A stretch of 64,000 nucleotides of DNA, taken from contig JAZDFI010000008.1 of NCBI GenBank assembly GCA_043808015.1, forward strand, positions 13,271-77,270. Reading direction: 5' to 3'. This document shows, one piece after another, positions 2,176 to 48,704 of the stretch. The stretch is from Candidatus Aenigmatarchaeota archaeon (GTDB lineage: Archaea > Aenigmatarchaeota > Aenigmatarchaeia > QMZP01 > QMZT01). The notes beneath the pieces were generated by a model. It saw only the letters and a list, made by a program, of their open reading frames with translations, was not told the origin of the DNA and did not search any database. The position numbers were made by a program, and so were the translations under genes. The stretch's first letter is position 1; every line of letters starts with the position of its first letter.

Positions 2176-3102
2176 ATGGACAAGGAAAGGAGAGTGCTAC
2201 TGGTTTCGATGATAATAGCTGTCGTGCTGGTCAGCGTTTTCGCCGTCCTTACCCAGGATGTCGGCATCATAGTTAACGTGAGCGTCATAGCGCTGTTCAT
2301 AGTCATCACTCCGCTTTTCCTGATAAAATACACGGAATTACTCTGGTTAAAATCGATAGAGAAAGAGTTCCCTGCATTCATCCGCGACCTCGCAGGCTTA
2401 AAGCGCTCCGGCATCACGCTTTCCGAAGCGATAAAGATGACGACGAAGAACAACTATGGCAAGCTCACGCCTGAAATCCAGAAGTTCTCCAACCGCTTGT
2501 CCTGGGGCGTGCATTTCATCAGGGCGCTTGAAATTTTCGGCAAGCGCTTCCGCGCCTCGAAGCTCGTAACGGAGATACTGAGCATCGTAAGAGAAGCGTA
2601 TGTCTCGGGCGCCAACATATCGGTCACTCTCGATTCGCTTTCCAGGGATATGGTCACGCTCAAGGAGATCGATGAAGAGCGCAAGTCAGTCGTTCGCCAG
2701 CACGTCATGATAATGTACGGCATATTCTTCATGTTTGTCGCGATATCCATTTCCATAATCTACGTCCTCGTGCCCATGATGAGCCAGACGCAGCAGACGT
2801 CTGTAGCGAATTCGCCGTTAGTCATGTCCTTCGCCGACCCGTGCCAGAGGATGAACATCCCGTTCCCGTGCGCGTATTTCGGCGTGGTCTGCGAGTCGTT
2901 CTCAGTAAACCAAGGAGTGGGCTGCTATTACTTCTCGCTGTTCTTCACCGTGCTTGTCATACAGGCGATATTCATGGGCCTGATATCAGGGCAGCTCGGT
3001 GAGAATTCGATCGTCGCTGGCGTCAAGCACTCGCTCATAATGCTCGCTTCCGTGTTCATGATATTCATGTTCGTGGTCAGGAGCGGGCTGCTGCCGGTTT
3101 GA
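2176..3102 (+). CDS. Single T2SSF-domain membrane platform protein, second of two (FlaJ/PilC/TadC-like)
   Basis: 308 aa. N-terminal TMs, then EKEFPAFIRDLAGLKRSGITLSEAIKM...VSGANISVTLDSLSRDM (T2SSF-like), then C-terminal TMs. Starts 19 nt after the previous stop, in a different frame. Confidence 0.7.
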   Translation: MDKERRVLLVSMIIAVVLVSVFAVLTQDVGIIVNVSVIALFIVITPLFLIKYTELLWLKSIEKEFPAFIRDLAGLKRSGITLSEAIKMTTKNNYGKLTPEIQKFSNRLSWGVHFIRALEIFGKRFRASKLVTEILSIVREAYVSGANISVTLDSLSRDMVTLKEIDEERKSVVRQHVMIMYGIFFMFVAISISIIYVLVPMMSQTQQTSVANSPLVMSFADPCQRMNIPFPCAYFGVVCESFSVNQGVGCYYFSLFFTVLVIQAIFMGLISGQLGENSIVAGVKHSLIMLASVFMIFMFVVRSGLLPV

Positions 3103-3154
3103 TTCTGCAATATTTCCAGGCTAAATATTTTAAGAATACAAGCCAATAAAGAGT

Positions 3155-4009
3155 ATGGACTTCATCAGCGAATACTTCCTGAACCCCATTCTATCGAACG
3201 GCTGGTTCAACCCCGTCAATTCACTGGTTTATGGAATTATTCTTGTCGTGGCTGTATATTTTGTTTTCAAGCTCCTGAAGCGCATGCGCGTACGCATAGA
3301 CCGGCATTTCCTGTATGCGATAACGCCGTTCATCTTATGGGCGGCCATAACGCGCGTGCTTCACGACGCCGCGTTCGCTGGTGCGCTCAAAGGCGATATA
3401 GGCGATTTCTTCTCGATGCCGGTATTCCCGACGCCGGGCTCGTATTTCATCACGTTTACGCTCGCACTAGGAGTTTTAGTCATCTCTTTAGGCATACAGA
3501 AATATGCGAAAGCGATTCCGTACTGGAAATCCATGGCCGGGATTGGCGTGGCGCTATCGGCTATCGAATTAGCCATTATGCCAAAATTCGATATCATTCC
3601 AGTGGGCATGATTCTGGGCATCACTGGCCTATGGACTCTGCTGTTCTTCCTGTTCCACAAGTTTTCTGTTTCCTTGCAAAAAAAATCCATGCTGAAAACG
3701 CTTAAGCAGATTTTCACACTCGACAACTCGGCCATACTTTCGGCCCACATGCTCGATGCCAGCGCGACTTTCGTCGCCCTCGCGTTTTTCGGTTACGCCG
3801 AGCAGCATCCGCTGCCGCGCACGCTTATCGAGTTCTCCAACCCCGCGGCCATGTTCCTGCTCAAGCTCGTCGTGCTGATACCTGTTTTATACATAATCGA
3901 CCGTCACGCAGAGAAGGGCGAGTTCAAGAACTTCCTGAAGATAGTCATCTTCATACTAGGGCTCGCGCCAGGCCTGCGCGACATGATAAGGCTGATGGCA
4001 GGCGTCTAA
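3155..4009 (+). CDS. Polytopic membrane protein (possibly DUF63-like archaeal family)
   Basis: 284 aa with about 7-8 hydrophobic segments. The motif HMLDASATFVALAFFGYAEQHP is reminiscent of DUF63. The family call is from memory only. Confidence 0.5.
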   Translation: MDFISEYFLNPILSNGWFNPVNSLVYGIILVVAVYFVFKLLKRMRVRIDRHFLYAITPFILWAAITRVLHDAAFAGALKGDIGDFFSMPVFPTPGSYFITFTLALGVLVISLGIQKYAKAIPYWKSMAGIGVALSAIELAIMPKFDIIPVGMILGITGLWTLLFFLFHKFSVSLQKKSMLKTLKQIFTLDNSAILSAHMLDASATFVALAFFGYAEQHPLPRTLIEFSNPAAMFLLKLVVLIPVLYIIDRHAEKGEFKNFLKIVIFILGLAPGLRDMIRLMAGV

Positions 4010-4014
4010 CGATT

Positions 4015-7000
4015 TCAAGAATCAGAACCAGATTCTGCAGTGTATTGCGCCAATTCCTTCGGCCAGCATATATCATTGAATGTTATCAGCGTGTCCTTGG
4101 TGTCCTTCTTGGTGAAGCTGTACGTCGCACTCGCTGTTATAGTGTATGTCTTTTTCGGAACTTCTAACCTGCTGATACCGTTGTAGCTGCATACGCCGTC
4201 ATTTGAAAAGCCCAGCTCAAAAATATAGGCGGAAACGTTCGCGTCTTTATTGTTCAGATCAAATTTGAAACTTCTCGTGCACGTAGGTTCGCCCAAATCC
4301 TTGGTTACGTTTAAGGACACTTTGGCATTGCTTACCGCAGTGTTTTTCGGATCCCAAGTGGTTGAAAGATTGAAACCGATATAGAATCCTGTGCTTGCCT
4401 TTATTGGCTGGTCCATTGAACCGAGATTGAGGTTGGCAGGCGAAGTTGAAAGCAGAGAAGGCTTCTGCGCTCTTACAAGCTTGTCTTCTGATGAGAGCCT
4501 CTTCCATTCCTGGTCTGAAATGAAATCTATCTGCAGATTCGACGTCGACTCGTATTCGTAAGTCACGTTAATCATGAAAGGTATGTATTTCTCCCTCACC
4601 GTATGCTCTTGGCCGCCGATAAATCCGAAATCGTTCCACGCAGTGCTTCTGAAGTCTTCGCATTCCAGTTTACCGTAAAGTAGGATTGGGATGGTTTCTT
4701 TCATTTCTATATCTTCTATATTTATTCCCATAGCCTGGTTGATGTAATTTTTATCCATTGTGAACCTGTACCATTGTTCATTGGTCTTCTCGTTCTTGGG
4801 CAGCTTTTCCATTTTGTTTGTTGGGACGGTATTATGTCCAATCTTGAAATCCCTTATAGTCGTTAGTAAATCAATTCTGACGTTCTTTGCGTGGAATTGT
4901 CCCTTGTTCTCCAGCTCCATTTCTATCAAGAAAGGCTCCCCGAGATATATTGGATGGACGTCAAACTTCCTTATCTCCAGGCCGTACGCCCCTGATATTC
5001 CCATCTCGTTTTGCGCGTATTGGCCATTCGTTATCTGTTGAGCATACCCGACCGGGTTGGTGAACAGCATCCATCCCTGGCCGAACGTGTTCTGGAACTG
5101 ACCGAACATGTCGCCCATCGGCTTGAAGAAGTCATTTACGCCATTGTGGACTGACGGCCACCACTCGCCGAAGAAGGCCACGCCCACCGACTGCTGGCCG
5201 GAGCCAAGGCCGAAAATCACGAAACCTATCACGAGTATTATTACACCCATCCATGGCCTCGTCTCTGCCGGGGTTGTGAGCCCGGCTACAAGACCGAGAA
5301 TCCAAACGGCACTGAATACTATGCCGCCTGTTCCGGAGAAGAAGCCGCCAGCTAGGTTGAAGCCACCTATGACGGCAAAAATTACCATTATCGCAACGAA
5401 TACGACTTTGTCTATCATGTCGTAGCTTGCCCCTGACGCATTGCCTATTTTACCCAGAGCCTTTGCCAGGTTGTTCTTTTCTGTTGCGACAGGCAAAACG
5501 ACGAAGAAGGCCAACGTCAGCCAGCCAAGCTCTTTCGACTGGAATATGCCTCCGCCCAAAACGCCGAATATGAAAAAGGCTATGAAAAGTGCCAGCAGAA
5601 CCCTAACGAATGAAAGGATGAAGTCGTATGGCTTTGATGGTTCGAACTCTATCGGCATCTTGAAGTAAAAGCCGAACGCAAGGAACAGCAGCAGAAGATT
5701 GGAGCCCGGGAACTGCTGCGAATAAAGGCCGCCGATGAAGCACACCACGATGCCTGCCATCGCAACGGCTTTCAGAAAAGCTATGCCAGTGTTCGTTCTG
5801 TTTTCCGTATTAGTGAAAAGGCTGCCGAAAGTAGTGAATTCCTCGGCGTCGAGCTTGTTTTCCTTTGGGTTTGGAAGTATCATGTGGAAGCCCCAGAAAA
5901 TGAATCCGATAAGATACCATATGTTGCTTGTGTAAGCCGATATGGCAATTCCAATTATGACCAGAACCAGCGAAGAAATTATGTGATTGACGCCGTGACC
6001 AGTCTTCCTGGAAAAATCCGAGATGAGTCTGGAGCCTTTCGTCGCCTTTCCCAATGCTCGACCAGGACCCTTTTCTAAAATCGTGCTATCTGGCCTTTCG
6101 CCCTTACCGTCTAGATAATCTTTTATTTGCTCTTCTCTTGACCTGTTTTTTTCTTTTGCCTGTCCTTCTACCGACCGATTTTTTATTTCCAGTTTTATTA
6201 CGTCGGGGTCTGTCGGGCTGACTTCACCAGCGCTTACGACCACGCTTGCCGTTGCACTCACTTCCCTTACCTGCGTTGAAAATTCATCGGTGTATTCCTT
6301 CGTCACAGATACTTTGTATGACTTTACGCGCACTGCCGGCTGCCATGGTATCCTGCCGGCAGGAATGTCGGGAATGAAAAACTTGCCGTTCTTGCCGGAT
6401 GTGCCTTTATAATGCGTGCCGTTGACATCAATCAAGATTATTGCACCATCAACAGGAGAGCCGTGCAGGTCGGATATAATTCCGGTAGCAGCCCCGACTG
6501 CTTTGTCCGGGTCAGCCTGTTTGTTCCCTTCATGATTATGATAATGTAATTCTACATCTACAGGGTTGTCATGCACGTCAACATTGGTATTTCTATTTTT
6601 AGTGTTGTGAGTAGTGGTTTGTGTGCTACGCTGGTAGTTCTGATAGTTGAAATTAAATCCACCCTTGCCTTTTCCTCCGCCACCGCCTCCCCCACCGGAA
6701 CCGTCGAATTTTTTCGTTTTGACTTCTTTGAGCTCTTTTTTTAGCAGGAAATGACAGCCTTCTATGGCATAATGCGGATTGAAACCAGCGTTTGCCAGAG
6801 ACTTATTAATATCGATAGCTTTCGCATCTCCGGATTGAATATATGTGGGAATATCCTGAAGGTATCTCATAAGATCGTTGTATCTGGCTATTTTTTCCTT
6901 TGTGCCCATTCCCACCCATTGAACACCCGGAAAAAATATGTCCCTTGCGATTCTCAGCGCCTGCATATCCCTTCGTACTAAAGAAACTTCGTCCGGGTTT

Positions 7001-7053: not shown

Positions 7054-7125
7054 GTCGACCTGATAATAATTAATTAGGAATGTATAAATTTGTATAAAAA
7101 GAGAAAAGCGGTTCTAGCGACTACT

Positions 7126-7557
7126 TTACTTGCCGAACCAGAGCTTGAGCTCGGCTTTCGCTTCATCGGGCGTGCCGGAGGCGTGAATGAGATTGTAGAT
7201 GGAGCGGTGCTCTTTGTCGGCCTTCTCGCACGAGTCGTCGCCCAGATCGCCTCGTATCGTGCCCTTGTCGGCCTTGCTGGGGTCGGTAGCGCCGACTATT
7301 CGCCTCACGTGCGCGACCGCGTCCTTCCCTTCGAGCACCATAGCGACGACCTGCCGGTTGGCCAGGTATTTGATGAGCAGCTCAAAGAACGGCTTCCCCT
7401 TGTGCATGGCGTAATGCGTCTCAACAAAATCGCTGGTCGGCGCGACCATCTTCATGTTTCGCACTTTCAGGCCGCCGTCTTCAAAGCGCCTTATTATCTC
7501 GCCGATCAGGTTTCTGTCGACTCCGTCGGGCTTTATCAGGACTAGCGTTTTCTCCAT
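7126..7557 (-). CDS. ndk: Nucleoside diphosphate kinase
   Basis: MEKTLVLIKPDGVDRNLIGEIIRRFE...NLIHASG. ATG at 7557 is preceded by GAGGAGTGA. The longer ORF start at 7575 is less likely. Confidence 0.9.
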   Translation of the reverse strand: MEKTLVLIKPDGVDRNLIGEIIRRFEDGGLKVRNMKMVAPTSDFVETHYAMHKGKPFFELLIKYLANRQVVAMVLEGKDAVAHVRRIVGATDPSKADKGTIRGDLGDDSCEKADKEHRSIYNLIHASGTPDEAKAELKLWFGK

Positions 7558-7561
7558 AAAA

Positions 7562-8212
7562 TCACTCCTCAGCAAGCTTGTTTTTCTTCATGTAAGCATC
7601 AACCGATTTCAACATCCTGCGCGACACGTCTTCGATGCCGCCCACGGCGTCAACCTCTATTAGCACGCCTTTCTTCGTGTAGAAATCCACAAGCGGCTTC
7701 GTCGCCTTTTCATACACTTTCAGGCGCTTTTTGACCACGTCGTTTTTCTGATCCTCGCGGACGTAAAGTGCGCCTTTGCATTTGTCGCACATGCCGCTCT
7801 TCTTCGGCTTCGCGAACTTGTGGTGGTATATTTCCCCGCAATATCCGCATGTCAGGCGGCCTGTCATCCTTTCCAGGATGTTCCTGTTCGGCGCGACGAA
7901 GTTGATGACCATATCGATAGCGGCCGTCTTTTCGAGTTCTTTGGCCTGCACCAGCGTCCTGGGGAAGCCGTCGAGAATGAACCTCTTCCGCCCCTTGATG
8001 GCTTTCTTCATTATTTCCATAACTAAAGCGTCCGGCACCAGCTCGCCGCGGTCCATGTAAGCCTTCGCCTTTCTGCCTATTGCCGTGCCTTTCTTTGATT
8101 CGTTGCGCAGCATCTCGCCCGTGCATATGTTGGGTATCTTCATTCTGGTTGAAAGTATGCTGCACTGGGTTCCTTTGCCTATGCCCGGCGGGCCAAGGAG
8201 AATTATTTTCAT
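7562..8212 (-). CDS. adk: Adenylate kinase (long type with zinc-ribbon lid)
   Basis: MKIILLGPPGIGKGTQ P-loop and lid CGYCGEIYH...CDKCKG. Stop lies 4 nt before the ndk start. Confidence 0.9.
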   Translation of the reverse strand: MKIILLGPPGIGKGTQCSILSTRMKIPNICTGEMLRNESKKGTAIGRKAKAYMDRGELVPDALVMEIMKKAIKGRKRFILDGFPRTLVQAKELEKTAAIDMVINFVAPNRNILERMTGRLTCGYCGEIYHHKFAKPKKSGMCDKCKGALYVREDQKNDVVKKRLKVYEKATKPLVDFYTKKGVLIEVDAVGGIEDVSRRMLKSVDAYMKKNKLAEE

Positions 8213-8404
8213 GAATGTTCCTCTAGCTAGGATTATTATTCTTCAAAACGCATGCTTAAAACCTTTTCGCTACGCTCTCGTTTCTATCCCTTTCCTTATG
8301 CTCTTTATGAAATCCTCTGGCTTGACGTCGAACTTGACCTCCACTTTGGTCTGTAATGTCCTTGCTAACAACTTATTCATGTCTCCTATGACAATAATGT
8401 TACA

Positions 8405-9545
8405 ATGAGATTTAACATTCTGCAATATCTGCCTAAAGAAACAAAGATAATGATTGACAAAGATTTAGCGCAAATTCTATTTGCCAATAAAAAACTTTGC
8501 GAATTTTCCAGAGAATACGGAATCGGCTTAAAAAATATGAGCAGATACAGAAACTGCACCCGCTCGATTCCTATAAAATTATTTCAAAAAATAGCTCAAA
8601 ATTCTCCCATTAGAATGGAAGAATTCCAAGGAAAGATGCGAATTAAAATAAACAGAATGGGCAAGTATGTCAAAATAGGACCTGTTATAAACATTGATGA
8701 AAAGTGGGTATATATTTCGGAACTCATTAAAGGTGATGGTTATATCCCGTCTACTTACTGGTATATAGTTTTTGTTAATAAAAATGAAAATTTGATTAAT
8801 GTTGTCAAGAACTTTTTTTTTATCTTTGGGCTTGCCTGAAAAACAAATTGATATTCGAAGAAGATCAGATGCAACATTCCTTACAGTCAGATCATCTCCT
8901 ATTGCATACATCCTCAACGGAATACTTGGAGTGCCTGTTGGGAAGAAGGGCGAGATCGGTATCAAAAAGTTTGTTATGAATGATAAAATATTGTCGGTGG
9001 CGGCCGTTAGAGGGGCATTTGATGCGGAAGGTGCCGCTACATTCACCGGGTCGCGGAGGATATCCATAACGTCAAATAGTCAAACATGGCTCCTATATTT
9101 AAGTAAAATATTGAAGAATCTCGGTATAAAATCCACAATATATGAAGAACGGAAAGGTAGAAAAAAACCGATATATCGTTTGTTTGTGCAACATATTATT
9201 AACATTCGCAGGTTTTATGAAATAGTCCAACCTCAGCATACGCAAAGGAGTAGAAAACTTAGAGAAATCATTGAAACGTACAGCAAACCATATTTTGGTG
9301 TCGGGTATCTGAGGAAACCCATACTTCTTTCGATAAAATCAGGAAATACGAGAAGATCAAAAATAGCAGAAGACATATCACAAAATCCTATAACAGTTGG
9401 AAATAATATCAAATGGTTAAGAAAAAGAGGACTGATAAGGCCTTCAAAAATGGTTTATACGAACAATGGTGGCTTCTATGAATATATTTTGACAGAGATG
9501 GGGCTGAAATACCTAAGAGATGACACTCTCTCTTTTTTTGATTAG
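8405..9545 (+). pseudogene. Free-standing double-motif LAGLIDADG endonuclease-like gene with N-terminal HTH and C-terminal winged helix, interrupted by a frameshift
   Basis: ORF 8405..8839 carries motif 1 (SELIKGDGYI). ORF 8799..9545 carries motif 2 (AAVRGAFDAEGAA) and a wHTH-like tail (ITVGNNIKWLRKRGLI). The frames switch at a T9 run (8813..8821). The region is visibly AT-rich. Confidence 0.6.
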
Positions 9546-11240
9546 CTTGGTTATTTCGCTAATGAAGTCATCAATCTTAACGTTAAATTTCACCTTACCA
9601 TCTCTCGTTCTAACTGCCAAAGTGTTATTTTTTTCCTCTTTATCGCCAATTGTAATTACAAAAGGTATTTTATTTACAGCCGCATCCCTTACTTTGTATT
9701 CCACTGTGTTCGATTTCAGGTCGCATTCCGCCCTTATCCCCGCATTTTCAAGGCTTTTCAAGATTTCACCGGCCGCCTTATTGTTCCTGTCCGTGAAGGA
9801 CAGGACGCGCACCTGGACAGGCGAGAGCCAGACCGGAAGGTTGCCGTCAAAGTGCTCGAGAAGTATGCCTATGAACCTTTCCAAAGAGCCGTATATGACC
9901 CTGTGCAACATTACCGGCCGATGGTCCTCGTTGTCTTCCCCTTTGTACGTCAGGTCGAACCTTTCCGGCATGGCGAAGTCGAGTTGTATGGTTGCGCACT
10001 GCCAGGTCCTGCCCTGGCTGTCCTTGATGTGATAATCAATTTTCGGGCCGTAAAACGCACCATCGCCCTTGTTTATCTTGAAGTTCATTTTTTTGTGTTT
10101 GAGTGTCTCCTCGAGCTTCGCCTCCGCCTTGTCCCATATTTTGTCGTCGCCTATCCTTTTCTCGGGCCTGGTGGAAAGCTCGACGTGGTATTCGAACCCG
10201 AACTTTTTGTAAAATTTATCGACCAGTTCCATTATCCTTCCTATCTCGCTCTCCAGTTGTTCTTCGGTGCAGAAGATGTGCGCGTCGTCCTGAGTGAAGC
10301 GAATTACCCTGAAAAGCCCTGTGAGCACGCCGGACAGCTCCTGGCGGTGGACTACGCCAAGCTCGCCGACGCGAAGGGGGAGATCTTTGTAGGACTTGGG
10401 CCTGTTCTTGTAAACCATCATCCCTCCGGGGCAGTTCATGGGCTTGACGGCAAAGCTCCGGCCCTCGTACTCGGTTATGAAGTTGTTCTGGTATTTCTCC
10501 CAATGGCCTGAAATCTGCCACAACTTCTTGTCCATGATTTGCGGAGTCGAAATCTCCTGGTATCCAGCCTTCCTGTGCTGCTCCCTCCAGAAGCTGATTA
10601 GTTCGTTATATATGGTGAGACCCTTATCATGCCAGAACACCATACCTGGAGCGACTTCGCTGAAGCTGAAGAGGTCCATCTTCTGGCCGAGTATGCGGTG
10701 ATCGTTGTCCTTGAGGTTATCCTTGTCGAGCCGCGTCTTCGAGATGTCTCTCATAAGCTGCTTGTAGTCAAAACTCTCTTCCTTCGTTACCTTGGTTTTT
10801 GTTTTGGTCCTCTCGACCCCCTCGGGCAGTATGTCCCTGCTGAGCTCCGAAAGAGGATGCCCCTTGCACTTTATGTCGAAGGCCTTGTACCAGCCGAAGG
10901 GAGCGCGCTTAACCGGGACTTTCGCTTCGATTAGCGCTTCTTCCACGCCCTTGAGCACGTAGAGAGCGGAATCCGGCGACGATAGATCGCTGGACAGGTG
11001 GGCATACGGATAAACGACTACGTTTTTGGCGTTTACCTGGTTTCTGACGGATATGATTTCCTTGGCGGCTTTCTTGACCACGTCATCGAGGTTTGCCTGG
11101 TCCAGCTTCTCGACCGCGCTGAACACGACGAGGGCGTCTTCGACTCGTACGGGTTTCTTCTCGATTTCCTCCGCGCTTGAAATGGCTTTCTTCTTCGGCT
11201 CCCACTCTATGAAATCCGAATGCAGCAATAATATCTTCAT
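9513..11240 (-). CDS. thrS: Threonyl-tRNA synthetase, archaeal type with N-terminal archaeal editing domain
   Basis: 575 aa. Starts MKILLLHSDFIEWEPKKKAI. Class II core (FWHDKG, RVIRFTQDDAHIF) and a C-terminal anticodon-binding domain. Confidence 0.9.
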   Translation of the reverse strand: MKILLLHSDFIEWEPKKKAISSAEEIEKKPVRVEDALVVFSAVEKLDQANLDDVVKKAAKEIISVRNQVNAKNVVVYPYAHLSSDLSSPDSALYVLKGVEEALIEAKVPVKRAPFGWYKAFDIKCKGHPLSELSRDILPEGVERTKTKTKVTKEESFDYKQLMRDISKTRLDKDNLKDNDHRILGQKMDLFSFSEVAPGMVFWHDKGLTIYNELISFWREQHRKAGYQEISTPQIMDKKLWQISGHWEKYQNNFITEYEGRSFAVKPMNCPGGMMVYKNRPKSYKDLPLRVGELGVVHRQELSGVLTGLFRVIRFTQDDAHIFCTEEQLESEIGRIMELVDKFYKKFGFEYHVELSTRPEKRIGDDKIWDKAEAKLEETLKHKKMNFKINKGDGAFYGPKIDYHIKDSQGRTWQCATIQLDFAMPERFDLTYKGEDNEDHRPVMLHRVIYGSLERFIGILLEHFDGNLPVWLSPVQVRVLSFTDRNNKAAGEILKSLENAGIRAECDLKSNTVEYKVRDAAVNKIPFVITIGDKEEKNNTLAVRTRDGKVKFNVKIDDFISEITKLIKKRESVIS

Positions 11241-12323: not shown

Positions 12324-13637
12324 ATGATGGATTTGAGAGGGGTGCACGAGTATTATGCAAGGGAGGATGTGCAGAACTTCCTGCTCGAGTTCGGTAGAGA
12401 CAGGGAAGTCGTTGGCGTGTTCAGGAACGGCAGTTTCTCTCAGAGGCCTAACGTCGTTCTCTACCCGAATGACGTTCTCGCTATGGTCAAGACGGGCGTC
12501 GTCGAATTCCACTCGTCTCTCGAACGTTGGTCACAGCCCATGAGCCTGAAGCAGGACAACCATGGCCAGCTGCGCAAGGGATGGGACCTCATAATGGACG
12601 TGGACTGCGAGCTTTTCGAGCACGGCAAAATCGCCTCGGAGGCGTTCATCTGGGGCCTGCGCAAGCACGATATAAAAAACGTGTCCATAAAGTTCACTGG
12701 CGGCACTGGGTTCCACATAGGCATACCATGGGAGTCGATACCAAACGTCATAGACTATAAACCAGCGGCTTCCCTTTATCCCGAGCTCGCCCGAAAGATG
12801 GTGCTGTACCTGAAAGATTATGTTTTTGAAAGGCTGGAAAAGAACCTGTTCAAAAAATTCTCGGCCGAGGAAATGGCACAGCAGGTGAACAAGCCTCTCG
12901 GCAAGATACTCACGGAAGACGGCCTGAACGCGTACGCGGTGGTCGACGTCGACCCGGTCCTCATATCGCCGCGGCATCTATTTAGAATGCCTTACTCGCT
13001 AAACGCGAAGACGTTTCTCGTTTCGCTGCCCATCGATCCAGACAGGCTTGACAGCTTCGACCGCATGCAGGCCAAGGCAGAGCGCGTGCGAGTGCTGACG
13101 CCCTTCCTCTCCGGCGAAGGCAGGGACGGCGAAGCCGATACGCTCATAGCCGAGGCGCTGGACTGGAACGCGCGGATGCGCAAGAAGGAGGAGAAGCGGC
13201 TCGAACACAGAAACGAGATAACACGACCCGTCCCCATCGAGCGTTTCCCGCCGTGCGTCAAGAACATACTGAACGGGCTGCAGGATGGACGAAAGCGCTC
13301 GATGTTCATCCTCATCAACTTCCTGCGCTCCTCAAAGTGGACGTGGGACGACATAGAGAAGTTCGTCACCGAATGGAACAAGAGCAACAAGCCGCCGCTT
13401 CCGGAGAGCCACGTCCGCTCGCATATAAGATGGCACAGGACGAGGAACAAGGAAGTCCTGCCTCCGAATTGTTCGAACGAGGGATGGTACAAGAACTTCG
13501 GCGTGTGCGCGCCTGACGAGAAATGCGCCAAGGTAAAGAATCCGGTCAACTACGCGCTCCGCGGCATGAAGGCCGAGGAAGAGAAGAAAGACAAAACAAA
13601 AACCAAAACTAAGAAGCGCGCCCGCCGTCAGATGTAA
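12324..13637 (+). CDS. priS: DNA primase: PriS catalytic domain fused to a PriL C-terminal (Fe-S)-like domain
   Basis: PriS motifs DLIMDVDCE, FTGGTGFHIGIPW and VDPVLISPRHLFRMPYSLNAKT. C-terminal part: FPPCVKNILNGLQDGRKRSMFILINFLR...PPNC...GVCAPDEKC, with four Cys spaced like the PriL-CTD cluster ligands. Confidence 0.8.
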   Translation: MMDLRGVHEYYAREDVQNFLLEFGRDREVVGVFRNGSFSQRPNVVLYPNDVLAMVKTGVVEFHSSLERWSQPMSLKQDNHGQLRKGWDLIMDVDCELFEHGKIASEAFIWGLRKHDIKNVSIKFTGGTGFHIGIPWESIPNVIDYKPAASLYPELARKMVLYLKDYVFERLEKNLFKKFSAEEMAQQVNKPLGKILTEDGLNAYAVVDVDPVLISPRHLFRMPYSLNAKTFLVSLPIDPDRLDSFDRMQAKAERVRVLTPFLSGEGRDGEADTLIAEALDWNARMRKKEEKRLEHRNEITRPVPIERFPPCVKNILNGLQDGRKRSMFILINFLRSSKWTWDDIEKFVTEWNKSNKPPLPESHVRSHIRWHRTRNKEVLPPNCSNEGWYKNFGVCAPDEKCAKVKNPVNYALRGMKAEEEKKDKTKTKTKKRARRQM

Positions 13638-20007: not shown

Positions 20008-20349
20008 CTAGCAGCTGGAATGAATTAAGGCGACCGCTTTCTTCTTGTCGGCCAGGAAGCCGTTGAACATCTTAGCAGCCTTGGGCGAAAGGTCATGGTA
20101 TATCTCGATTTTTTTGTCCTCAGCGGCCTGGGCGACTTCCTCGGGGATTGTGACGTGGCCTTCCATGCCAGTGCCCAGAATAATGAGTTCAGGCTCTTTC
20201 TCGGCAAGCTTCAGGAACTCGTTTATGCCGAACTCGTGCGATTTCGTGCGGAATTCGATCTTGCCGTCCCACCACACAATCATGTCGGAAAAGTAGGTCT
20301 TGCCGTCTATATCGACCTCGTCGAACCTGACATCAGTTATCTTTACCAT
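20008..20349 (-). CDS. Mth938-domain (DUF498) protein
   Basis: MVKITDVRFDEVDIDGKTYFSDMIVWWDGK...PELIILGTGMEG. Start set at ATG 20349 because the longer ORF runs into the tRNA gene. Confidence 0.6.
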   Translation of the reverse strand: MVKITDVRFDEVDIDGKTYFSDMIVWWDGKIEFRTKSHEFGINEFLKLAEKEPELIILGTGMEGHVTIPEEVAQAAEDKKIEIYHDLSPKAAKMFNGFLADKKKAVALIHSSC

Positions 20350-20382
20350 GTTTATTATTGGTATTGGAGCGGATAAAAAGAA

Positions 20383-20547
20383 TAGCCCCGGGCGGATTCG
20401 AACCGCCGTCAACCGGTTTCTCCCGATTCGGGTTTTTGCTGAAGCTTTTTATTAAAAAGCTTCGTCCAGAGCCGGTTATCCTTAACCCCCCTCTCAAATC
20501 GCTTTAAGAAAAATTTTCAAAGGGATTGGCCACTAGACTACGGGGCT
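20383..20547 (-). tRNA. tRNA-Gln(CUG) with two introns (D-loop and canonical 37/38)
   Basis: Hand fold of the reverse complement: AGCCCCG-TA-GTCT-AGTGGCCAA-[44 nt]-GGAT-A-ACCGG-CTCTGG-[48 nt]-A-CCGGT-TGAC-GGCGG-TTCGAAT-CCGCC-CGGGGCT-A. The spliced product is 73 nt. Confidence 0.75.
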
Positions 20548-21422
20548 ATATTCAACATTCTTCTTACGTGCTTTATATTATTAAATCTTATGTTTGTTTT
20601 ATATTTTTCTATCTCCTCCTTTTTAGAGAGGAAAAATTGATCTAAAATTATTTTAGATGGAGAAAAACCAAGTGATATTAAACCACTTCTCGCGTCAAAA
20701 AGCAAATTTTTAGATTTATTTTTAAAGGATATTCTCAATAATTTTCTATCTCGTCTTGACATTCTAAATATTGATCCATCTGTATCTATCAAACCTCTTA
20801 TACATGATTTTAAAAAATTGGTATCAGTTTTTATCCATTCAGGTATTCCAACATTATTCACTTTTTTATTACCGTTTTTTAACCCAAAACTTTCCAATAT
20901 TTTTATAATTTCTTTGCTGTATACAGTTATGAATATTTCATTTTTTCTCATCTCGATTTTTGAATTTATTTTAAAAATGTCATCTACCAGAGGTTTTACA
21001 AAATTCAATAAATAATCTCTTTCTGTTTTCAAATCTCCAGCTATTTTTAACGCATATACGCCCTTTTCTCCGTTCCAGTAGAGATTACCATCGCCTAAAA
21101 TTATCCCTATGATTTCAGCCAATTCGATTGATTTTTCAGGAATCATAATTTTTTTGGTTTTACCGGGGGAATTTTTACCTCCCAGTACTTTGCCCCAATT
21201 GTCTTCCAGTTTTTTATCGATATGTTTGTAGAATTCAACTTCGGCAACCTGACACAATTTTTTAAAAACTTCTGAATTTAACGATACTTTTTCATTGAGT
21301 AAATCTATTCTCAAATAATCTTTACTAACTCCCACCATTTTACTCAATTGCAGCCATGTTTTATTTCTTTTCGCTTTCAATATAAGTTCCCTCTGCTTAC
21401 CATTTTTTAATATTACCCGCAT
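20538..21422 (-). CDS. Free-standing double-motif LAGLIDADG endonuclease-like protein with N-terminal HTH
   Basis: Motif 1 AEIIGIILGDGNLY, motif 2 IRGLIDTDGSIF. Very AT-rich coding sequence. The last 10 nt, including the TAG stop, overlap the 5' end of tRNA-Gln. Confidence 0.7.
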   Translation of the reverse strand: MRVILKNGKQRELILKAKRNKTWLQLSKMVGVSKDYLRIDLLNEKVSLNSEVFKKLCQVAEVEFYKHIDKKLEDNWGKVLGGKNSPGKTKKIMIPEKSIELAEIIGIILGDGNLYWNGEKGVYALKIAGDLKTERDYLLNFVKPLVDDIFKINSKIEMRKNEIFITVYSKEIIKILESFGLKNGNKKVNNVGIPEWIKTDTNFLKSCIRGLIDTDGSIFRMSRRDRKLLRISFKNKSKNLLFDARSGLISLGFSPSKIILDQFFLSKKEEIEKYKTNIRFNNIKHVRRMLNIAP

Positions 21423-21573
21423 TAAATTATTTAGTTTTTCTCACTTATAAATTTCCTTGTACACTGGACTACATATTAAAAAGTAAAATAATGTCAAATT
21501 ATTGTAACTTTTTAGTGATAAAACTATTTATAAATAAAAAAATCAAGTATTTACAATAAAACGGGTGACAGGT

Positions 21574-22953
21574 ATGGACTTCGGTTTCGAGAGCTTCGAT
21601 GCCGGTTTTGCAGGCTTTGACGTGGATGTGGAAGACTTCCATATCAGCAAAAAGAAGAAATACGACAGGATATGGAAGGTTGGTGCTGGCGGCAGCGTGT
21701 GCTCCAAACCTGTCATTGATGGCAATGTAGCTTACTTTGGGTCGCTTGATCATAATGTCTATGCTATTGATTTGAATACCGGCAAAGAGCTTTGGAGATT
21801 AAAGACTAACGGCCTTATACTTGATTCCTCTCCATCTCTGCATGATGGAGTGCTGTTCATCGGAACCTTTGGTCACGACGTTCATGCCATAAACGCTTAT
21901 GAAGGAACCGAGTTGTGGAAATTCCGTGCAGGAGCGGAGATAAACTCCAGACCTCTCGTTTTCAACGATATGGTATTTTTCACGTCAAAGAACGGCTACA
22001 TGTATGCTGTGAGCGAATCCTCTGGAAAGGAGCTGTGGCGCTTCAGGACGGGAGCGGAAATGGTTTCAGCACCGACCCAATACGATGGCAAAATAATAAT
22101 CGGCTCATACGACGGATACCTTTATTGTGTTAATATCGACGGTAAGGAACTCTGGCGCTTCAGAACAGGAGCGGAAATAGAAAATGACGATTATTTTCTC
22201 ATAGATGACGGCATAATATACTTCGGCAGCTTCGACAACAATCTTTATGCCGTGGACATAAAGACAGGCCGTGAAGCATGGCGCTTCAAAACGGGCAAAT
22301 ACGGCAACTGCGGCGTGCCGAGGATGCACAAAAAAGTCATATATTACGGATCGAGGGACGGTATATTCTACGCCATAGACTCCATTACGGGAAAAGAAAC
22401 CTGGCGCTTCAGCACAGGCAAAGAGATAATAGACAAGGGCCCCCTGGTATACAAAAACAAAATCTATTTCGGCGCGGGCGACAACAATGTTTATTGCCTG
22501 AACCTCGAAGGCGAAGAACTCTGGCGCTTCAAGACCAGCGGCGGAGTTTACACGTCTGTAGTTGAGCACAAAGGTACGCTCTACTTCGGCAGCTGGGACT
22601 GCCACCTTTACGCAGTCGATTCAGCTACGGGCAAAGAGGTGTGGCGCTTTGCGACTAGCTCGCTTACGCCAGCGCCGTTGCCGCCTGCATACGAATGCTT
22701 TGAAGTGGAAATCAAAAAAGGCGCTCACATAGAGGACGCGATATCTGAAGAAAAATATTCCAGTAAAAAACACGATCACGTTTCTCTTTCAAACTACCAG
22801 ATAACGAGCGAGTATTCGACTAAGAGCGAATACAAGCAGAAGAGCGATTACGACGCCCATTGGGTAATGTTTGAAGGTATACTAAACGAGGAGGAACTGA
22901 CATGTCTTTCGAATTTGGTGGATTTGAATCAGCGGACTTTGATGTCGAGCTAG
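21574..22953 (+). CDS. 8-bladed PQQ-like beta-propeller repeat protein, paralog 1
   Basis: Eight repeats of G-K-E-L-W-R-F-(R/K)-T-G spaced about 40 aa apart. No signal peptide. Acidic F/D-rich N-terminus. ATG at 21574 (the track start 21565 is GTG). Confidence 0.75.
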   Translation: MDFGFESFDAGFAGFDVDVEDFHISKKKKYDRIWKVGAGGSVCSKPVIDGNVAYFGSLDHNVYAIDLNTGKELWRLKTNGLILDSSPSLHDGVLFIGTFGHDVHAINAYEGTELWKFRAGAEINSRPLVFNDMVFFTSKNGYMYAVSESSGKELWRFRTGAEMVSAPTQYDGKIIIGSYDGYLYCVNIDGKELWRFRTGAEIENDDYFLIDDGIIYFGSFDNNLYAVDIKTGREAWRFKTGKYGNCGVPRMHKKVIYYGSRDGIFYAIDSITGKETWRFSTGKEIIDKGPLVYKNKIYFGAGDNNVYCLNLEGEELWRFKTSGGVYTSVVEHKGTLYFGSWDCHLYAVDSATGKEVWRFATSSLTPAPLPPAYECFEVEIKKGAHIEDAISEEKYSSKKHDHVSLSNYQITSEYSTKSEYKQKSDYDAHWVMFEGILNEEELTCLSNLVDLNQRTLMSS

Positions 22954-40753: not shown

Positions 40754-40784
40754 TTTTATCGCGTGTTTTTCTGAAAAAATTTTA

Positions 40785-40903
40785 AGCGGAGGGAGGGAGT
40801 TGAACCCCCTTATGCCGGTATCTGCTCAGGATGACGCAGATTGCATCTGCGTCCGTCGCTTAGTCCGCTGCAGCCGGCCACATGGCCGTTTTGTTACCTC
40901 CGC
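40785..40903 (-). tRNA. tRNA-Cys(GCA) with a 48-nt intron at 37/38
   Basis: Hand fold: GCGGAGG-TA-ACAA-AACGGCC-ATGT-G-GCCGG-CTGCAG-[48 nt]-A-CCGGC-ATAA-GGGGG-TTCAACT-CCCTC-CCTCCGC-T. The discriminator is U73, the Cys identity element. Confidence 0.75.
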
Positions 40904-41038
40904 TTGTTTTCGGCTTTGTCTTGGTTATAATGTGTAATAATTACATAGCATATAGATTATTAAAAATTACATTTTTCCCGTTTCCTTGGAAATGGAAGGA
41001 TAATATATATTTATGTAAAATTTCCATCTTAATTTTGT

Positions 41039-48668: not shown

Positions 48669-48704
48669 GAAACATTGGCGAGTTGTCCTGACAAAAAGGA
48701 TCTG
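48669..48704 (+). promoter_or_regulatory. 5' arm of the 23S processing stem
   Basis: GAAACAT-TGGCGAGTTGTCC-TGACAAA-AAG-GATCTG pairs with 51817..51855. Helices of 6, 7, 13 and 7 bp are separated by 3-nt bulges (bulge-helix-bulge-like). Confidence 0.7.

Follow-up and report, generated by a model that had tools for sequence, protein, structure and literature searches.

What keeps the two halves of a tRNA acceptor stem 165 nt apart, and what is the AT-rich DNA that adjoins the same gene on its 5' side? The question is raised by a locus on contig JAZDFI010000008.1 of a Candidatus Aenigmatarchaeota archaeon (assembly GCA_043808015.1), of which a stretch of 64,000 nt was analyzed (positions 13,271–77,270 of the forward strand; this whole stretch is called the window, and all coordinates refer to it). 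The answer to which the analysis leads is a tRNA-Gln(CUG) gene interrupted by two introns and joined to a cassette that is built around a homing endonuclease gene (HEG) of the LAGLIDADG type, and in this architecture we place very high confidence. The explanation of the locus as a whole, a two-intron tRNA next to a homing cassette that shields it, is the best we can offer and we regard it as probable, with appreciable room for doubt.

The gene lies on the minus strand, which from 20547 to 20383 reads AGCCCCG UA GUCU AGUGGCCAA (44 nt) GGAU A ACCGG CUCUGG (48 nt) A CCGGU UGAC GGCGG UUCGAAU CCGCC CGGGGCU A (Table 1). A first-pass annotation, made from the sequence letters, had located the acceptor halves AGCCCCG (20547–20541) and CGGGGCT-A (20390–20383) at this distance of 165 nt and had proposed that a cloverleaf forms only when two segments are removed; both statements hold. 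Excision of the D-loop insert (I1) together with the anticodon-loop insert (I2) leaves a 73-nt RNA that ARAGORN, at its default settings, calls as tRNA-Gln(ctg) with a clean, regular cloverleaf, and excision of either insert alone results in no call or in a mis-call. The interval of 20482–20525 that had been given for the 44-nt D-loop insert is exact. For the other insert, placed at about 20417–20465, the length of 48 nt and the 37/38 site stand, whereas the interval itself was one base too long and is refined to 20418–20465; this one-base ambiguity leaves the product unchanged, because an A follows both junctions. Within I2, GAAGCUUUUU and AAAAAGCUUC form a perfect hairpin.

That standard finders would miss or mis-call such a gene had been anticipated, and they do. 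ARAGORN in default mode reports no tRNA anywhere in the window, and Rfam at its gathering threshold passes over the tRNA-Gln locus, its matches in the window being the archaeal small- and large-subunit (SSU and LSU) rRNAs and one tRNA at 54658–54766. With the -i option, ARAGORN calls c[20382,20548] as a tRNA-Leu(cag) with one 75-nt intron, a model with a D-stem of 2 bp, an anticodon stem of 3 bp and an oversized variable arm, to which the two-intron model is preferred. The window holds no second copy of tRNA-Gln(CUG).

Table 1 Features of the tRNA-Gln(CUG) gene and of the cassette adjoining its 5' end
Feature	Position (strand)	Remarks
tRNA-Gln(CUG) gene, three exons and two introns	20383..20547 (-)	165 nt; A1:U72, discriminator A73, CCA not encoded
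Exon 1, tRNA nt 1–21 (acceptor 5' strand, D-stem 5' strand, D-loop AGUGGCCAA)	20526..20547 (-)	
Intron 1 (I1), 44 nt	20482..20525 (-)	Non-canonical; D-loop, between A21 and G22; relaxed HBh'
Exon 2, tRNA nt 22–37 (D-stem 3' strand, A26, anticodon stem 5' strand, C32 U33 C34 U35 G36 G37)	20466..20481 (-)	
Intron 2 (I2), 48 nt	20418..20465 (-)	Canonical 37/38 site; full hBHBh'
Exon 3, tRNA nt 38–73 (anticodon stem 3' strand, variable loop, T-arm, acceptor 3' strand, A73)	20383..20417 (-)	
T-run TTCTTTTT right behind A73	20375..20382 (-)	Read from sequence
AT-rich island, 959 bp	20548..21506 (.)	GC 0.24–0.35, against about 0.5 in the flanks
LAGLIDADG HEG, 294 aa	20538..21422 (-)	N-terminal helical domain and single-chain double-LAGLIDADG core
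TATA-like TTTAATAATATAAAG at -38 to -24 of the tRNA	20571..20585 (-)	Within the HEG 3' coding region (codons of invariant F280 and N282)
TATA-like TTTATAAG between remnant and HEG start	21444..21451 (-)	Position kept in L107, L109 and L124; TTTAAGTA in L108
Remnant GTAGTCCAGTGTACAAGGAAA, decayed uninterrupted copy of tRNA nt 7–27	21452..21472 (-)	29 nt upstream of the HEG ATG

The exon–intron structure can be read from natural alleles in related genomes. The nearest of these, a metagenome-assembled genome of Candidatus Aenigmatarchaeota (L001), was obtained by scanning genomes with the neighboring FEN1 protein, which in L001 is 95% identical. In L001, all three exons are 100% identical to those of the window (73/73), exons 1 and 2 are contiguous, and an intron of 48 nt occupies the 37/38 site. 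The flanks of the two loci are 85–89% identical and I2 differs at 4 of its 48 positions; that the exons are fully conserved beside such flanks points to continued selection on the exons. A further syntenic relative, L065, in which FEN1 is 91% identical at the DNA level, carries an intron-less gene of 73 nt that matches the predicted spliced RNA letter for letter. The L065 gene scores 63.0 bits with Rfam RF00005 (threshold 29) over its full length and has no non-standard pairs, and the L001 gene scores 50 bits; to two-intron tRNA-Gln genes the Rfam tRNA model is blind. The D-loop insert is likewise absent from L074. The more distant syntenic relative L107 shows a compensatory change from A27:U43 to G27:C43 across the anticodon intron. 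Orthologous I2 sequences of 48–49 nt with pair-preserving changes are present in L001 and L107, and I2 is absent in L065. Among close relatives, the HEG and I1 are present or absent together, and I2 varies independently of them. As read from the DNA of these relatives, the natural alleles prove the predicted exon–intron structure of tRNA-Gln. In a scan of metagenomes, the exact 22-mer of exon 1 was found to be common to 94 tRNA-Gln loci.

Folding of the exon–intron junctions, with the cut set between nucleotides 2 and 3 of each bulge, gave a full bulge–helix–bulge (BHB) motif at I2 and a relaxed one at I1. The hBHBh' of I2 consists of a 7-bp helix h (the anticodon stem and two more pairs), a 4-bp helix H (C32:G, U33:A, C34:G, U35:G), a 3-bp helix h' and two 3-nt bulges (G36 G37 A and A A A38); with two such bulges around a 4-bp helix, flanking helices of at least 2 bp and its position at 37/38, I2 is a canonical BHB intron, and the substitutions seen in L001 preserve its pairing. 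At I1, H is formed by G18 G19 C20 C20a with intron positions -6 to -3 (GGUU), and h' comprises 6 bp within the intron. A 4-bp H, an intron-side h', a weak exon-side helix of only one pair and a tRNA that is restored by excision identify this as the relaxed HBh' type. A local fold of the D-arm with I1 reproduces both H and h', the D-stem taking the part of the displaced outer helix. An unconstrained BHB scan proved too permissive, with ~0.1–0.2 comparable motifs per random 165-nt segment, and a boundary-constrained test was used instead; here, composition-matched shuffled inserts yielded an equally good BHB at cloverleaf-restoring boundaries with P = 7.5e-5 for I1 and 3e-4 for I2.

Introns at the same D-loop site in other genes obey the same geometry. 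Among the loci fetched, 18 distinct tRNA-Gln genes have an insert at A21/G22, and these inserts, 13–96 nt long, are mostly unrelated in sequence. A perfect 4-bp H is found in the A21/G22 register in 14 of the 18 introns, with 59 of 72 cells paired, and in none of the 18 in any of six slid registers. Position 3 of H covaries, being C:G in ten genes, U:A in three and U:G in one. The proposal of the first-pass annotation that a non-canonical D-loop intron is combined with a canonical one at 37/38 is thus backed by natural intron-less and one-intron alleles, by BHB geometry and by covariation in 18 introns; its pointer to Thermoproteales does not apply, the organism being a DPANN archaeon. There is strong support for a tRNA-Gln(CUG) that is predicted to be functional and whose transcript must lose two introns through the archaeal splicing endonuclease and ligase. 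The T-run TTCTTTTT is likely to serve as its transcription stop. As a separate observation, many metagenomic tRNA-Gln genes with the same exon 1 have inserts in the T-loop or T-arm, for example behind GGTTCGAA (L013, L018, L022, L036, L052, L062, L025/L043/L060/L080 and others); some of these genes are 214 nt long and apparently have three inserts. For this single tRNA the variety of introns is unusually great.

The gene that adjoins the tRNA, which like the upstream remnant had escaped the first-pass annotation, encodes an intact protein of the LAGLIDADG type. Its last codons and TAG stop coincide with tRNA nt 2–10, the stop itself with nt 8–10. The product matches Pfam PF14528 (LAGLIDADG_3; E = 3.4e-9) and is identical to P0001, a protein that NCBI names 'LAGLIDADG family homing endonuclease' and that is deposited under Candidatus Aenigmatarchaeota. 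Both catalytic motifs, LGD111G and LID213TD215G, are intact, and D111 and D213/D215 are invariant in 76 relatives. The AF2 model (pLDDT 92.5) shows a double alpha-beta-beta-alpha-beta-beta-alpha core, for which Foldseek returns as best match the homing-endonuclease domain of the TliVMA intein, followed by I-Tsp061I and I-DmoI (E about 1e-8 to 1e-7), the latter two with the highest TM-scores on the target (0.65–0.73). With two motifs, the catalytic acidic residues and two halves in one chain, the protein belongs to the single-chain, two-motif class. The gene is also optional among close relatives, a signature of mobility, being absent at the same locus in L001, L065 and L074, where the flanks are 85–92% identical at the DNA level. 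The HEG is intact, and its product is a predicted homing endonuclease. As an aside, the HEG stop falls inside the tRNA in L107–L126 too, either at nt 8–10 as in the window or further in; in L124 and L125 it reaches the D-loop intron. If HEG and tRNA are co-transcribed, the RNase P cut at tRNA nt 1 would strip the stop codon from the HEG message, a possible coupling of tRNA processing and endonuclease expression.

The HEG is part of a larger unit. As judged by blastn and alignment, the 959-bp island takes the place of the 79-nt PQQ–tRNA spacer of L001, and it is absent from L065 and L074 as well. At the far end of the island lies the remnant GTAGTCCAGTGTACAAGGAAA, in which the D-loop junction is uninterrupted. 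The TATA-like TTTATAAG beside it is, by its position, a candidate HEG promoter, and the TATA-like TTTAATAATATAAAG is a candidate promoter of the tRNA; within the latter region, TTTAATAA is kept at about -37 to -30 in the window, L107, L108, L123 and L112. An uninterrupted tRNA-Gln 5' fragment that has been displaced, a TATA box, the HEG, a replacement exon 1 and the D-loop intron together make up a cassette of ~1 kb, and the D-loop intron appears to be the 3' end of this cassette, not an isolated insertion. I1, at 44 nt, contains no open reading frame (ORF), and the free-standing HEG next to a gene with an ORF-less intron is the layout of collaborative homing.

Other classes of element were considered for the island and set aside. 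A permissive Rfam scan of 20250–21650 for a group I or II intron around the HEG gave noise-level matches only and no intron families, and in the window nothing of this kind is found at gathering level. An integrase-type element of the SSV or pNOB8 type was rejected; a direct repeat is present, but the LAGLIDADG ORF is the sole gene between the repeats, and host genes lie directly outside in all contexts. A giant BHB intron with the remnant as its 5' exon does not fit either, the remnant having no acceptor strand in the window, L107 and L108, and the bases that follow it being unable to pair as h' with the 3' part of the intron.

The arrangement recurs in other genomes. The HEG family has more than 300 members of about 300 aa in Aenigm-, Nano- and Pacearchaeota, and ten further independent HEG contexts were fetched, making 11 with the window. 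In all 11 the HEG adjoins or runs into the 5' end of a tRNA gene that shares its strand, the tRNA being tRNA-Gln(CUG) in ten and tRNA-Glu in one. For at least 68 of 120 family members, the C-terminus (xPVV, AP) is encoded by tRNA nt 1–15. In order of identity to the HEG of the window, the fetched contexts are L124 (67%), L107 (64%), L123 and L109 (61% each), L125 (60%) and L108 (59%), all with tRNA-Gln(CUG) and a D-loop insert; L112 (56%), L114 (49%) and L118 (48%), with tRNA-Gln(CUG) and no D-loop insert; and L122 (43%), with tRNA-Glu(CUC). A tRNA 5' remnant lies upstream of the HEG in nine of the 11. It covers nt 1–27 in L124, L123 and L109, nt 8–27 in L107, about nt 1–24 in L125, nt 10–28 in L108 and nt 1–21 in L114 and L118; none was found in L112, and none was identified in L122. 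In loci with the intron, the remnant thus stops near nt 27; in L114 and L118 its end is precisely nt 21, which is the intron site. Behind the remnant there is usually a TATA-like box. A 22-nt query detects remnants (16–19 of 22 positions) at 894–948 nt upstream in six HEG loci, against at most 15 of 22 in about 70 HEG-less loci, and remnants at matching positions were read directly in L114, L124 and L125. Remnants are thus confined to HEG loci, at a distance that is fixed. Most HEG loci are AT-rich relative to their flanks.

With the window counted, every one of the seven loci with an HEG identity of 59% or more has the D-loop insert, and the three tRNA-Gln loci with 56% or less all lack it. 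The background among distinct HEG-less genes is about 12 of 70 (~17%), which gives a hypergeometric P of 2.1e-5, uncorrected for phylogeny. As in the window, the D-loop intron beside the HEG is ORF-less in L107, L108, L109, L123, L124 and L125. In L109, L124 and L125, the remnant is of D-stem type C12…G23 and the functional gene of type G12…C23, from which it follows that the displaced fragment and the working 5' part come from different alleles.

Some members of the set depart from this pattern. At L122, a family member (2501–3415; the 43% relative) abuts a tRNA-Glu(CUC) with a 96-nt intron in the anticodon loop, and the HEG family may have switched tRNA targets there. L114 has a second copy of the tRNA 3' end, CTGGTGGGGCTA, about 250 nt downstream of the complete tRNA-Gln, which suggests that the cassette of this clade includes an entire tRNA gene and has displaced the resident gene at its two ends. 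L021 (6730 onward) and L038 hold a tRNA-Gln(UUG)-like 5' half with a distant LAGLIDADG-like ORF of 386 aa on either side (5181–6341 and 7103–8263); an ORF-containing tRNA intron was considered for these loci and dropped, no 3' half being found within 3 kb, and the half may belong to a split tRNA or to a disrupted gene. The distant LAGLIDADG ORFs of L028 and L077 lie beside other, antisense tRNA genes and were not counted as the same arrangement.

How such a cassette could arise and spread may be pictured as follows. The endonuclease would cut uninterrupted tRNA-Gln genes in the D-arm, around nt 21–27, and an allele that bears the cassette would serve as template for repair of the break. If pairing of the left end were with the remnant, HEG, new exon 1 and intron would all be copied; if it paired with the functional exon 1, the intron alone would be. 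The intron would split the recognition site, so that the resident tRNA beside the HEG would escape cleavage, and splicing would keep the tRNA functional. Later recombination between the two direct repeats could remove the HEG, so that a D-loop intron without an ORF would remain. Homing combined with repeat deletion would account for all four states, i.e., HEG present or absent with intron present or absent, and the recurrence of the HEG–tRNA and repeat layout in 11 contexts would imply break repair (homing) rather than site-specific integration. The case for cleavage being blocked by the intron is circumstantial: remnant ends coincide with the intron site, and all seven loci of one clade have the intron. 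Homing with immunity may well be the mechanism, although our own judgment falls slightly on the side of doubt. Only tentatively do we extend it to the proposal that LAGLIDADG cassettes of DPANN archaea target the tRNA-Gln D-arm and deliver, or mobilize in trans, a BHB-spliced D-loop intron that restores and immunizes the tRNA.

A number of observations weigh against the account of a spliced tRNA shielded by a homing cassette, and some of them lend themselves to other explanations. The exon-side helix h of I1 is weak (0–1 bp), and the minimum free energy (MFE) fold of the full-length transcript shows neither BHB, the constrained structure having -52.9 kcal/mol versus -66.7 kcal/mol for the MFE; mispairing of D-arm and anticodon arm is also predicted for the mature tRNA, and this fold was discarded as an uninformative test of the BHB. 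Taken at face value, the weak helix and the disfavored splice-competent fold, together with an inspection of the genome that covered 64 kb, would suit a 44-nt insert that disables the gene, leaving a tRNA pseudogene while CAG is read by another tRNA-Gln elsewhere in the genome. We consider this very improbable, given exons that are identical at 73 of 73 positions beside flanks that differ by 11–15% (by our own estimate, exons that drifted like these flanks would show no change with a chance of about 1e-4), the P value of the HBh' motif, a covarying helix in the same-site introns of 17 other distinct genes, the lack of a second tRNA-Gln copy in the window, and the TATA-like box and T-run at this one. 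Same-site D-loop introns also occur in at least 12 HEG-less lineages without remnants, so that the intron can persist without the HEG, and the HEG loci L112, L114 and L118 are intron-less; immunity in these three must therefore come from sequence differences. Furthermore, I1 of the window and I1 of L107 are unrelated in sequence to the intron family of L108, L109, L123, L124 and L125. All three points speak for another reading, in which a genuine two-intron tRNA lies next to the HEG by coincidence, or the HEG merely finds a safe place to land in the flank of the tRNA, and the D-loop intron was gained independently and has no role in immunity or mobility. The HEGs of the window and L107 (64% identity) have moreover diverged about as far as the host proteins (58–79%), so that vertical inheritance plus loss would fit the divergence of L107 as well as recent homing does; the association in seven of seven loci is not phylogenetically independent, five of the introns being homologous and three or four of the loci sharing a RIO1 neighborhood; and the putative target and cut site of the endonuclease are deduced from the remnant end-points alone. 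Coincidence nevertheless seems unlikely to us in view of the excess of introns in the closest HEG clade over the background, the remnants that end at nt 21 or about nt 27, i.e., at the intron insertion site, and the near-identical genomes that have both HEG and I1 or neither, with I2 behaving independently.

The LAGLIDADG protein could also be a domesticated DNA- or RNA-binding factor, comparable with WhiA, a maturase or a regulator of tRNA-Gln expression, in which case adjacency would reflect co-expression. A large family of full-length proteins conserved across DPANN, always encoded on the same strand as the tRNA and overlapping it, would be consistent with such a role, as would the extra N-terminal helical domain, the appearance of WhiA at rank 37 among the fold matches and the candidate tRNA TATA box within conserved C-terminal codons. 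What makes this quite improbable is that neither catalytic Asp motif varies among 76 sequences, that the best fold matches are active enzymes, that presence of the gene varies among close relatives and its composition is foreign and AT-rich, and that a direct repeat of the putative target flanks the HEG, a hallmark of insertion. We thus retain the homing cassette that shields a two-intron tRNA as the preferred explanation.

The tRNA itself belongs to a known class, that of two-intron tRNAs with a non-canonical HBh' intron, here in a DPANN archaeon. Its closest counterpart in layout is the pre-tRNA-Glu(UUC) of Methanopyrus kandleri, which has a D-loop HBh' intron and a canonical intron and is cleaved in vitro (Kaneta et al. 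2018, PMC5829648). Both combine a relaxed HBh' in the D-loop with a strict BHB in the anticodon loop, and in M. kandleri a broad-specificity EndA is required for efficient removal of the D-loop intron; the same paper associates DPANN EndAs that have an 'L3' loop with more disrupted tRNA genes. M. kandleri is, however, a member of the Euryarchaeota, the tRNA is tRNA-Glu, its intron is shifted by one position (exon 2 starts with A21), and no mobile-element context is described; its splicing was tested in vitro, whereas that of the present gene is predicted. Thermoproteales, TACK and ARMAN tRNAs (Sugahara 2007/2008, Fujishima 2010/2011), as far as they are summarized in PMC4090602 and PMC5829648, likewise have non-canonical BHB or relaxed-BHB sites and several introns per gene, are missed by standard finders and show rapid gain and loss of introns between close relatives, but the present gene is from DPANN Aenigmatarchaeota and has a homing endonuclease gene physically attached.

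How archaeal tRNA introns are gained is stated to be unknown in reviews (PMC4090602). An analogue that relies on a recombinase has been described once, at tRNA-Thr(GGU) of Caldiarchaeum subterraneum, where a recombinase element lies between a 5' fragment and a tRNA with a gained 24/25 intron (Sugahara et al. 2012, PMC3293823), and for which the authors proposed that the element delivers the intron and the intron blocks further invasion. An uninterrupted 5' fragment, a same-strand gene beside the tRNA, a reconstituted tRNA with an extra D-arm intron and alleles that are polymorphic among close relatives are common to both systems. In Caldiarchaeum, the recombinase is part of a 1.8-kb pNOB8-like element at one locus in one population; the present type differs in having a LAGLIDADG HEG in a cassette of about 0.96 kb, an ORF that overlaps tRNA nt 1–10, and 11 contexts in several DPANN lineages.

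Collaborative homing has been described for the free-standing endonuclease F-CphI and an ORF-less group I intron in cyanophage psbA (Zeng, Bonocora and Shub 2009, as reported in PMC6083498). According to that report, a free-standing endonuclease gene lies there too beside a gene whose ORF-less intron interrupts the target, the intron providing immunity and the enzyme intron mobility, and both cleavage and immunity are demonstrated, whereas for the window they are inferred. The intron of the window is, moreover, spliced by protein (BHB), the enzyme is of the LAGLIDADG type, the setting is a tRNA gene in an archaeal genome, and a replacement exon 1 forms part of the cassette, which also leaves behind a 5' fragment that it has displaced. 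I-DmoI and I-Tsp061I, which are encoded within archaeal BHB-type rRNA introns, share with the present protein the single-chain double-LAGLIDADG fold, an archaeal host and the association with BHB introns. Their ORFs lie inside the mobilized rRNA intron, however, while in the window the tRNA intron is short and ORF-less and the ORF is found outside it, on its upstream side; the encoded protein has an extra N-terminal domain of 75 residues. In the literature searched, no account was found of a tRNA-Gln whose 5' end is fused to a LAGLIDADG gene and which is accompanied by a displaced 5' fragment and a D-loop intron at the same site. The cassette is best understood in terms of two established concepts, tRNA introns delivered by elements and collaborative homing.

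An HEG cassette beside a D-loop intron suggests how odd tRNA introns spread. If the proposed mechanism is correct, the acquisition and spread of non-canonical introns in archaeal tRNAs would for the first time have a concrete explanation at the level of DNA. The cassette would also be a direct instance of the Randau–Soll proposal, in which tRNA introns shield the genes that contain them against invading elements, an idea for which there is 'no direct evidence' beyond the single Caldiarchaeum locus (PMC3293823). The compact, recurrent cassette and the natural intron-less, one-intron and two-intron alleles make the questions of intron gain and protection testable at the bench, and a large DPANN protein family that has so far been annotated only generically is flagged as associated with tRNA genes. 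The tRNA sets of DPANN archaea, including Aenigmatarchaeota, have been reported as incompletely predicted (PMC5829648), and a locus at which ARAGORN and Rfam both fail shows why they stay incomplete.

All three tRNAs found in the window have introns. tRNA-Cys(GCA) (40784–40904, minus strand) has one of 48 nt and is detected by ARAGORN -i only, being missed by Rfam at gathering level, and tRNA-Lys(CUU) (54657–54767, plus strand) has one of about 36–38 nt and scores 58.7 bits in Rfam; the HEG arrangement was looked for at both and is absent. A second AT-rich island (8405–9545, plus strand; GC 0.31–0.39) lies between the genes for adenylate kinase (7562–8212, minus strand) and ThrRS (9513–11240, minus strand), is absent from L001 and has no adjoining tRNA. 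It contains overlapping ORFs of 144 and 248 aa with one LAGLIDADG-type motif each (ELIKGDG and RGAFDAEG), the second of which matches Pfam LAGLIDADG_3 (E = 3.7e-13), and may represent a frameshifted or two-part homing endonuclease gene. The LSU rRNA match at 48693–51828 (plus strand) spans 3136 nt versus 2987 positions in the model, and the rRNA gene may contain extra segments.

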